Shown one piece after another: positions 3,072 through 30,200 of a stretch of DNA of 31,012 bases. Every line of letters begins with the position of its first letter. The first letter of the stretch is position 1. Source of the stretch: Thermoproteota archaeon (GTDB taxonomy: Archaea; Korarchaeota; Korarchaeia; Korarchaeales; Korarchaeaceae); NCBI GenBank assembly GCA_037917635.1, contig JAVCBX010000149.1, positions 1-31,012 on the forward strand, given 5' to 3'. Both the position numbers and the translations under genes were made by a program. The notes beneath the pieces were generated by a model. It was not told where the DNA came from. It worked only from the letters and a program-made list of their open reading frames with translations, and searched no databases.

Positions 3072-3730
3072 GGAAATACGTCGACCTAAAGCTTTGGTGC
3101 TGCGATTCGAATGAGGAACTTAAGTTTTTGATTGATGCTGCAGAGGAAATGGGCTACTGGGCTGTTGGAATCGCCTGCAAGCCTGAGAACTTTGAAAAAG
3201 CTAGAAAGGCGGTTAAACTCCTTAGATCTGAAGGTAAAAAAGTGTTTATTTCTGTCGAGGTTAGCCTTGAGAGTCCAAATGACTTAAGAACACTTTCAAA
3301 ACTCTTAAAGAAGAAAGCTTTCGTCTCTGCAGTTCCAAATTCCCTTGAGATGACGAGAAGGGCGGTCAAGTCAGGTGTTGACTCAATCGTCCTCTCTGCA
3401 AAGAAGAGAAGGCTTTTTTTCGACTCCGTTTGTGCAAAAGACCTCGCTAGAAAGGGAGGGGGCGTTGAAGTTCACCTGATTGACCTGATAAAATCGGATA
3501 GGGGAACTCTGATAAGGGCTCTTAGGGCAATAAGGCTGGAGCTAAAGATAGCTAGAAAGTACGGGATCCCCCTCATTTCATCAAGCGGAGCCTCAAAAAA
3601 GCTTGAGCTAATGGATCCTCTGATGATGGCATCTTTGGCAGAGACTCTCCTCGAAATTCCTGTAGAAGCAGCATTAAATTCGATAAGCGACTATCCCCAT
3701 TCCTTACTCCTCAATAAGGGGTTGATTTAA
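3068..3730 (+). CDS. rnp3: RNase P protein subunit p30 (Rpp30)
   Basis: YVDL start, PLISSGA...L.DP..MASL motif; superoperon position. Confidence 0.85.
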   Translation: MRKYVDLKLWCCDSNEELKFLIDAAEEMGYWAVGIACKPENFEKARKAVKLLRSEGKKVFISVEVSLESPNDLRTLSKLLKKKAFVSAVPNSLEMTRRAVKSGVDSIVLSAKKRRLFFDSVCAKDLARKGGGVEVHLIDLIKSDRGTLIRALRAIRLELKIARKYGIPLISSSGASKKLELMDPLMMASLAETLLEIPVEAALNSISDYPHSLLLNKGLI

Positions 3731-18873: not shown

Positions 18874-19014
18874 TGGACCGGGGGGGATTCGAACCCCCGA
18901 CCTCCCGCATTTTGGGGCAAAATGAAGAATTTTGCCATGCCAAGCGGGCGCGAATCTGGATTTTGAGGGGATTTTTAAAATCCCCTCTCGTTTACCAGGC
19001 TTCGCCACCGGCCC
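18874..19014 (-). tRNA. tRNA-Ala (anticodon GGC) with two introns: 39 nt at 21/22 (18992-18954) and 28 nt at 37/38 (18937-18910)
   Basis: Removing both introns gives a 74-nt cloverleaf GGGCCGGTGGCGAAGCCTGGTATCGCGCCCGCTTGGCATGCGGGAGGTCGGGGGTTCGAATCCCCCCCGGTCCA with the G3:U70 Ala identity pair; 4-bp central helices TTGG/CCAA and CTGG/CCAG flanked by 3-nt bulges. Confidence 0.93.
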
Positions 19015-20462: not shown

Positions 20463-20980
20463 AGCTCATCGCCCTCGCAATCCCTATTTTTTGATAGGTT
20501 ACAAGGTTTTTTAAGGTTAAGCATAGTGCCTTAGTCGTCGCCCGAGGAAGAAAGCCATATGGACCTAGAAGATAAGACAAGAGATAAGGTCTTTCTACTT
20601 AATAAGGAGCTTAGCAGCGTTTTAAGGCTAAGTTAAGACAATGAGGGACCTAAAGGAGGTCGATGTCTGTGCACATTCGATGTTTGAGGGCAGGTTAAGG
20701 GGCCTCTGTTTGGAAGTGCAAATTCCCTTTTAAAGTAATAGAAGCACTTGGACGGCTCTCTCATCCCATGGACTTTGAATTTAAGTTTTCCATGAAGTTC
20801 TCTCTTAAGTCCCTAAAGATGCTTCTTTTCCCACCTCTATCCTTGAGATGAAGTAAGACTTGGAGTCTGAAGCGAGAGTTCTCAAAAATTTCTTTTGCAA
20901 CGATCGCCCTTTAGTGTGCATAAAAATAATTCATTATAATTATTATAATTTATAGTTAAATTAATTAAAAAATTACAATA

Positions 20981-20994
20981 GTAAAGTTTATATA
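20981..20994 (+). promoter_or_regulatory. BRE/TATA promoter for the putative structured RNA
   Basis: GTAAAG-TTTATATA at the end of a 74-bp AT-rich tract; spacing predicts a start near G21015, the first base of the closing stem. Confidence 0.65.
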
Positions 20995-21014
20995 CTCTCC
21001 TAACATCCATCAAT

Positions 21015-21160
21015 GGACACCCATCTCCCGAAAACCCGAAAGGGAGCGAAACCTCTACTGAAGTTCTAGGGAGCCTTAAAACCTTAGGGTTTTAGGAACT
21101 CTCGAAAAACCCGAAAGGGTTTGAACTTCGTTGTTAGGGATTTCTAGGGAGGTGAGTGCC
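21015..21160 (+). ncRNA. Unassigned structured non-coding RNA candidate with two pseudo-symmetric three-way junctions
   Basis: Terminal stem 21015-21029/21147-21160; long central stem 21048-21066/21123-21144; two CCC-GAAA-GGG hairpins; inner stems 21069-21083/21088-21103; upstream TATA and downstream pyrimidine tract. Confidence 0.7.
21023..21151 (+). repeat. Imperfect tandem duplication of the module CTCYC-GAAAA(A)-CCCGAAAGGG-NNN-GAAM...KTTC-TA-GGGAG
   Basis: CTCCCGAAAACCCGAAAGGG (21025-21044) vs CTCTCGAAAAACCCGAAAGGG (21099-21119); TTCTAGGGAG at 21064-21073 and 21142-21151. Confidence 0.9.
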
Positions 21161-21193
21161 CCTTTTCCTTCAGAAAGAGGGACTTCCTTTCTT
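21160..21193 (+). terminator. Possible 3' end signal: small hairpin plus pyrimidine tract
   Basis: CCCTTTTC-CTTCA-GAAAGAGGG followed by ACTTCCTTTCTT. Confidence 0.35.
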
Positions 21194-21374
21194 GACTGAT
21201 AAAAAATTTGAGGAAGAGAGCAGACATTTATGTGAAAGCTTTTTTGAGAGATCTTGCAAAGGAACAGATGATTTATTTAATAACTTAACCTATAAGCGAA
21301 TTAACCATCTGACAGGATTTCTTTAAATATTCAACGTGGGGGTTGTTAGGTGACGGTCTTAGGAGGGACCTTGA

Positions 21375-21749
21375 TTGGGATTCTTTAGAAGAATCTTTGG
21401 AAAGCTGGAGGAGCCCAAAGAGGAACAGATTTTCCCTTCAGAAACTGAGACAATACCAGAAGTTGTCCCTGAGAAGCCCATTGCCATAAAGCCCATGATG
21501 CTCTCGAATGAGGCCGATGTAGAGGCGATCCTGAAGGAAGTTAGGAGCGGAAACATAGTGATAGTCAGATATAACGACTATGCATCCAGGGATGCGGAGA
21601 GGCTCGCGGAAATCATTCAGAGGCTTAAAGAGAGTGTCATGGAGGAGGGAGGAGAGACTGTTTTGATAGAAACTAAGGAGTACCCGCCTCTGTTAGTGGT
21701 GCCCCACTTCATAGAGGTCTGGAGAACTCCAAAGAGAAGGAGGGTCTAG
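21375..21749 (+). CDS. sepF: Cell division protein SepF (archaeal DUF552 type)
   Basis: MGFFRRIFG amphipathic N-terminus; DVEAILKEVRSGNIVIV, ..EGGE, LLVVP; AGGAGG upstream. Confidence 0.8.
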   Translation: MGFFRRIFGKLEEPKEEQIFPSETETIPEVVPEKPIAIKPMMLSNEADVEAILKEVRSGNIVIVRYNDYASRDAERLAEIIQRLKESVMEEGGETVLIETKEYPPLLVVPHFIEVWRTPKRRRV

Positions 21750-30111: not shown

Positions 30112-30200
30112 TGGGCCCGCCGGGATTCGAACCCGGGACCTCTCGGTTATCAGCCGAGCGCTTTTGGCGGAATACCTCTGCCAGGCTGAGCCACGGGCCC
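30112..30200 (-). tRNA. tRNA-Ile (anticodon GAT) with a 15-nt intron at 22/23 (30177-30163)
   Basis: Removing AGGTATTCCGCCAAA restores the GCTC/GAGC D stem; CTCGG-CTGATAA-CCGAG anticodon arm; TGGC/GCCA central helix with AGA and AAA bulges. Confidence 0.93.

Follow-up and report, generated by a model that had tools for sequence, protein, structure and literature searches.

A single-copy gene for a small structured RNA lies at 21015-21162 in the 31,012-nt stretch of Korarchaeota DNA analysed here (the window, from the window genome, G000). The gene unit, its fold, the variation in the number of its modules between relatives and its independence from neighbouring genes are established by the comparisons described below. 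The product is tentatively read, at somewhat less than an even chance, as a very stable trans-acting non-coding RNA of one sub-clade of a Korarchaeota genus, with a predicted role as a protein-binding scaffold or decoy. The RNA family is new but narrowly distributed, and does not so far amount to a new kind of system.

Apart from the universal ones, very few structured non-coding RNAs have been described from thermophilic archaea that are uncultivated. The module RNA is compact (66 nt in its one-module form) and its gene is clearly bounded from promoter to terminator, which makes it tractable for work on RNA folding and RNA-protein interaction at high temperature. One- and two-module forms, with self-paired or cross-paired arms, provide a natural experiment. 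The narrow distribution limits the present weight of the RNA. The features of the gene are listed in Table 1.

Table 1. Features of the RNA gene, with positions in the window
Feature	Positions	Strand	Details and basis
Conserved promoter block	20969-20994	+	Upstream element AAAATTACAAT-R-GT..., purine-rich BRE, TATA box
TATA box TTTATATA	20987-20994	+	20 nt ahead of G21015
Outer helix H1, 5' strand; likely transcript start	21015-21029	+	MFE fold; partner 21147-21160
Module 1 core	21030-21047	+	Linker GAAAA, hairpin CCC-GAAA-GGG (21035-21044), linker AGC
Module 1 arm P3, both strands, and UA linker (21067-68)	21048-21068	+	Fold and energy comparison
Inner helix (21069-73/21099-103) and central hairpin (21075-21096, loop UUAG)	21069-21103	+	MFE fold
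Module 2 core	21104-21122	+	Linker GAAAAA, hairpin CCC-GAAA-GGG (21110-21119), linker UUU
Module 2 arm P3 and UA linker (21145-46)	21123-21146	+	MFE fold and energy comparison
Outer helix H1, 3' strand	21147-21160	+	MFE fold and variant alignment
Pyrimidine/T tract, likely archaeal termination signal	21161-21172	+	TTTT at 21163-66; sequence read
Genome-specific stretch of about 790 nt with the RNA gene	20523-21308		Between the Sm gene and the sepF promoter

Fold, strand and comparison with known RNA families

An earlier description of this DNA, made without database searches (the sequence-only reading), had placed two copies of one module at 21015-21160, and both were found on rereading the sequence, at 21025-21073 and 21099-21151. 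The layout of the module is a CUCYC strand, GAAAA(A), a CCC-GAAA-GGG hairpin, three linker bases, a GAA...UUC arm, UA and GGGAG. The predicted transcript, about 148 nt in the window genome, would extend over 21015-21162. The minimum free energy (MFE) of this segment on the + strand was -60.2 kcal/mol, against -44.0 +/- 4.0 kcal/mol for dinucleotide shuffles (z = -4.01), and 0 of 200 shuffles folded as well. Every helix named in the sequence-only reading reappeared in the MFE fold, and with them the rod carrying two look-alike three-way junctions. Pairs were formed between 21025-29 and 21147-51, 21069-73 and 21099-103, 21048-51 and 21141-44, and 21060-66 and 21123-29; both CCC-GAAA-GGG hairpins were present, and the terminal stem joined 21015-29 to 21147-60. 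The P3 arm of module 1 has that of module 2 as its partner in the window genome (21048-58/21134-44 and 21060-66/21123-29). The inner helix is capped by a central hairpin of 9 bp, and the UUU linker of module 2 is able to pair with AAA, extending the hairpin of that module in the MFE fold. The segment that is invariant among relatives was predicted to be unpaired (unpaired-probability profile).

The opposite strand was nearly as stable (-57.0 kcal/mol, z = -3.76), so folding energy alone does not decide the strand. The + strand is favoured because it follows the conserved promoter and because its fold holds many G-U pairs, which become mismatches if read on the other strand.

The RNA had been left unassigned in the sequence-only reading, and its absence from Rfam was upheld: cmscan gave no match at gathering score, and a search of 20850-21400 up to E = 10 gave matches at chance level only. 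Riboswitch families, including that of c-di-AMP (ydaO-yuaA, RF00379), were without a match on 20850-21400 even at E = 10, and no self-cleaving ribozyme was found up to E = 10 (hammerhead, twister, twister-sister, pistol, hatchet, HDV-like and hairpin). RNase P RNA and SRP RNA had been set aside from their missing signatures, and the searches agree, with no match to RF00373 or RF02357 and with the SRP RNA of the genome (RF01857) located elsewhere (contig C15, 1816-2090, 128.7 bits). Run over the whole window genome, RF00373 gave no match; in G002 and in G013 it found an RNase P RNA of conventional type. RF02357 was likewise without a match in the window genome, in a search that matched none of its controls either and so shows little.

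RNase P RNA was undetected in the window genome and in three of the other genomes of the genus (G001, G003 and G004), in which Rpp29 and Rpp30 are present; the Rpp30 gene of the window lies at 3122-3649. All three genomes with the module RNA are without a detectable RNase P RNA, and G002, which has no detected module RNA, has one. The module RNA was considered as a replacement for RNase P RNA and rejected. Rpp29 and Rpp30 occur in all five genomes, SRP RNA is also missing from most, and a module RNA of 66 nt is too small for the catalytic core; for these reasons the missing RNase P RNA is likely an assembly gap. Elsewhere in the window, an Rfam tRNA match of 59.5 bits at 30112-30200 (-), with a 22-nt insertion in the D-loop region and no call by ARAGORN, probably marks a tRNA whose intron occupies a non-canonical position. 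At 18874-19014 no tRNA was called by Rfam at gathering score or by ARAGORN.

Promoter, genomic setting and distribution

The RNA occurs at two types of locus, and homology between them was confined to 20969-21162, that is, to the RNA and about 46 nt upstream, with the upstream element, the BRE and TTTATATA. As the sole block shared by two genomic locations, it bears out the proposal of a stand-alone RNA gene with its own promoter. The flanking DNA differs, yet every variant has kept the promoter block together with the RNA. From the end of the TATA box to the first G of the terminal stem the distance is 20-21 nt in every variant, and the bases between vary. The start had been expected some 21 nt after a promoter box, and in the window the TATA box at 20987-20994 ends 20 nt before G21015. 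An archaeal promoter at such a spacing is expected to direct initiation to the base of the terminal helix. The pyrimidine tract noted at the 3' end was also present, as a T tract after the terminal stem (TTTT at 21163-66); relatives have a T- or pyrimidine-rich tract after H1 too, weaker in G003. The upstream promoter element was not found elsewhere in the window genome. From its sequence, the RNA would be transcribed as an independent gene with a strong BRE/TATA promoter of its own.

Neighbours of the RNA in the window, as recognized by Pfam, encode L37e, LSm, SepF and FttA/aCPSF1. The start of the Sm gene and that of sepF are about 130 nt apart in sister genomes, without the RNA, and roughly 50 nt stand at the site of the extra stretch of G000. 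The Sm-sepF spacer of G000 carries about 790 nt of extra DNA (20523-21308), in which Pfam recognized no ORF and of which the genome has no further copy; homologues were found for the RNA gene with its promoter (20969-21162) alone. A 56-aa frame at 21156-21326 was without a Pfam match and without a counterpart in relatives. The sepF gene has a TATA-like box of its own (TTTAAATAT, 21323-21331), about 45 nt before its TTG start, which is kept in sister genomes and sits 150 nt past the RNA.

Relatives carry the RNA gene away from both Sm and sepF, beside an M42 peptidase gene. In G003, G004 and all metagenome loci it stands between a SHOCT or a 2-hydroxyacid-dehydrogenase gene and the convergent M42 peptidase gene, and the M42 locus of the window genome is without the RNA. 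This synteny, together with the separate TATA box of sepF, marks the RNA as an independent gene and removes the link to Sm or to SepF and cell division, which the sequence-only reading had raised as a possibility. A cis-acting reading is likewise removed because the RNA adjoins a convergent gene in relatives. No gene for a partner protein was consistently adjacent to the RNA across the loci examined. A predicted membrane protein of 149 aa, without a Pfam match, is encoded between the SHOCT gene and the RNA at locus L117 (3665-4114, -); its gene is also found at L122, L126, L129 and in G004, at single-module loci only. A type III antitoxin (ToxI-like) was considered for the RNA and rejected, there being no conserved same-strand downstream toxin ORF.

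The RNA was found in three of the five species of one Korarchaeota genus (window genome, G003 and G004) and on contigs from hydrothermal sediment. The NCBI name of a protein encoded beside the RNA places the clade in Korarchaeota. The two further species came from a BLAST search over 61 related genomes. Covariance models were built from one module (R1) and rebuilt from five (R2); in 43 genomes of the phylum and 151 archaeal genomes they matched the same loci only. No other credible module match was obtained in the 151 archaeal genomes with the covariance model, and weak matches in other genera fell in coding sequence. Module instances numbered five in the species genomes and 13 in metagenome contigs, at one or two per locus. 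A relaxed pattern run over 401 genomes returned the same clade only, and when collections of genomes, metagenomes and viruses were scanned for the exact pattern, the same RNAs and no others came up. The M42 peptidase neighbour was traced into public assemblies, which yielded 15 further loci, and R2 found the RNA in 9 of them. The gene is single copy, with no second copy in its own genome. It was not found in the sister species G001 and G002, and so is either dispensable or was missed by those assemblies. A search for published work on small or structured RNAs of Korarchaeota, or on the hairpin sequence, returned nothing relevant.

Module variants and pairing of the arms

Six sequence variants were distinguished. 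The RNA has two modules in the window genome, in G003, at L120 and at L124/L130 (Guaymas-type sediment), and a single module (66 nt) in G004 with its identical copies and at L117/L129. The single-module form looks, in sequence, like the L124 two-module form after recombination between the repeats. Because natural one-module versions of 66 nt exist, what is conserved as a unit is the three-way junction and not the rod with its two-fold symmetry.

In the alignment of the four two-module variants 93-94% of cells are paired. Two base pairs of H1 are changed on both sides, with 92% of its cells paired, and most of the other changes are to or from G-U; the inner helix is also paired in 92% of cells in the other variants, with one-sided changes only. 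Within the segment of the inner helix and central hairpin, AAAACC-UAGGGU is kept in all two-module variants, except for one loop change in L120. G003 and L120 differ by three substitutions and the two single-module variants by one, and each of these changes is in a loop or creates a G-U pair. Covariation links the outer 5' strand with the 3' strand of module 2, not with that of its own module, which upholds the outer and inner helices as drawn in the sequence-only reading. The variant set holds six sequences from one genus and marginally exceeds its shuffle controls. Given this low diversity, and with double-sided changes in the outer helix only, the covariation is thin, and supportive rather than statistically strong.

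The statement that the copies pair with each other rather than within themselves held for the window genome, in which self-folding of the arms costs 7.6 kcal/mol (-52.6 against -60.2 kcal/mol); in the other three two-module variants cross-pairing is not clearly favoured, being ahead of self-pairing by 0 to 1.1 kcal/mol. The alignment gives 93-94% paired cells for both arrangements alike, and energies discriminate between them in the window genome only. Homologues do not require cross-pairing.

The segment GAAAA(A)-CCCGAAAGGG was invariant in 18 of 18 module instances, and the arms vary. An invariant core beside variable arms fits sequence-specific recognition, as far as can be judged from the alignment. 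Such a motif, repeated on structured modules, is the arrangement looked for in multi-site protein-sequestering or scaffold RNAs. The central hairpin bears a weaker copy of the A-rich/hairpin motif. Module 2 of the window genome has UUU in place of AAY/AGC, which reshapes one of its junctions.

For the 66-nt single-module RNA at L003 (1485-1550), nearest-neighbour energies placed an unbranched fold 5 kcal/mol better than the junction. This alternative, in which the far strand of P3 takes up the hairpin's CCCGAA as its pairing partner, might represent a switch, or else an artefact of the energy model.

Proposed function and rival explanations

As a protein-binding scaffold or decoy, the RNA would be transcribed from its own BRE/TATA promoter and end at the T/pyrimidine tract, as a molecule of about 148 or 66 nt. 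Its functional unit would be a three-way junction, closed by a long G+C-rich helix that unites the 5' and 3' ends and built from the invariant single-stranded GAAAA(A), the invariant 3-bp hairpin capped by C(GAAA)G, the UA linker and a variable arm that starts with GAA and ends with C. Tandem duplication would have given transcripts with two junctions, and in the window genome the variable arms may have co-evolved into one intermolecular-style duplex, to give the pseudo-two-fold rod. The A-rich strand and hairpin at each junction would form a putative sequence-specific binding site, most likely for a protein, and each molecule would offer one or two (perhaps three) such sites. A protein is the most likely partner, by a binding step that we infer. 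One of the closest likenesses is with CsrB/RsmZ, the bacterial multi-site protein-sequestering sRNAs, with which the module RNA shares a stand-alone gene, a strong promoter and a short invariant motif on repeated hairpin modules whose number varies between relatives. Unlike them, it is archaeal, has 1-2 (perhaps 3) sites and carries its motif inside a three-way junction, without a known CsrA-like partner and without sequence relation.

A base-pairing regulatory small RNA, with the exposed A-rich strand and hairpin loop as a seed for mRNA, would also have a stand-alone gene, a strong promoter, a protective terminal stem and an invariant segment predicted to be unpaired. This is nevertheless unlikely, since the invariant part, for the most part a GNRA hairpin that is closed, would serve poorly as a seed, and the window genome (75% complete) held no complementarity beyond chance (best E about 0.2). 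The small-molecule reading raised earlier, a trans-acting or orphan aptamer, single or tandem, with one ligand per junction, agrees with the compact three-way junction and its invariant nucleotides, with the pseudo-two-fold rod of the window genome and with the coexistence of singlet and tandem forms, as in some riboswitch classes. We consider it improbable: no riboswitch family was matched even at E = 10, one junction of the window genome has a different linker (UUU), and there is no expression platform, most loci lacking a same-strand downstream gene. The 5' leader position of a riboswitch was not found either, the downstream gene being convergent in relatives and sepF having its own TATA box. 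The ydaO (RF00379) and tandem glycine riboswitches likewise hold a pseudo-two-fold or tandem pair of similar junction domains in one RNA; the module RNA, by comparison, matches no such model, has other conserved bases and another order of junctions, does not precede a regulated gene and has natural one-module variants. The chances are similarly slim for a new class of heat-stable three-way-junction receptor, in which an arm-dimerising monomer and a covalent 'domain-swapped' dimer would present two identical pockets for a ligand or a dimeric protein. Each putative pocket would combine the GAAA hairpin and the UA linker with the A-rich strand that is invariant, and, if this were true, no trans-acting aptamer or decoy RNA would have been described in Korarchaeota before it.

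The RNA might instead fold without any cellular function, as part of a decaying or selfish DNA element (a mobile remnant or a passenger of a variable island). Its different chromosomal location in the window genome, within an orphan insertion of about 790 nt, the variable gene island that holds it in relatives and its not being found in G001 and G002 would suit such an element. We give this little credence, however, given a promoter conserved at fixed spacing, substitutions that keep the structure, and a single copy without terminal repeats or an associated recombinase and absent from the viral contigs scanned. That the three-way junction forms a small catalytic RNA, self-cleaving or of another kind, is highly improbable: the size and three-way shape are hammerhead-like and the junction nucleotides are invariant, but no ribozyme family was matched at E <= 10 and the sequence lacks the hammerhead core CUGANGA...GAAA.

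A relic or derivative of a CRISPR repeat (a mini-array, a CreA/CreR-like RNA or a repeat mimic) that binds Cas6 or another Cas protein was also considered. The core CCCGAAAGGG, followed by A-A/G-Y-GAA(A)C, resembles archaeal repeats of 24-25 nt, among them GAATCCCGAAAAGGGAGTTGAAAG, of Korarchaeum type, and the repeat of G288, which ends in ...CATCCCGAAAGGGATTGAAAG. With archaeal repeats of type I-A/III style, which end in ...AUUGAAAG, the module shares a 3-bp CCC/GGG hairpin with a GAAA loop, a tail resembling AUUGAAAG and a location downstream of an AT-rich region. An AT-rich composition gives the promoter region a leader-like character, the modules have a period of about 75 nt, and the weak Rfam matches, at chance level, were to CRISPR-DR models. 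A covariance model of five real repeats (R3) nevertheless scored no module, and its run on the window genome gave no match at 21015-21162; the edit distance between module and repeats (6-8) was equalled by about 70 or more random genome sites; arrays with such a repeat were not found in the genus; and G003 has the RNA with Cas6, RAMP and Cas1 undetected (incomplete assemblies). There were no cas genes beside the RNA, either in ORFs within about 1.5 kb in the window or at the loci of relatives. Unlike CRISPR repeats, the module units are non-identical and without cas association, and the 'spacers' between them are conserved and base-paired with the flanks. Having failed the repeat-model, background and cas co-occurrence tests, a CRISPR origin was rejected as very unlikely. 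The window genome does have one CRISPR array, on contig C202 (2792-3060), with four repeats of about 37 nt at a period of 77 nt, beside Cas6-like and RAMP genes; its 37-nt repeat is unrelated to the RNA module.
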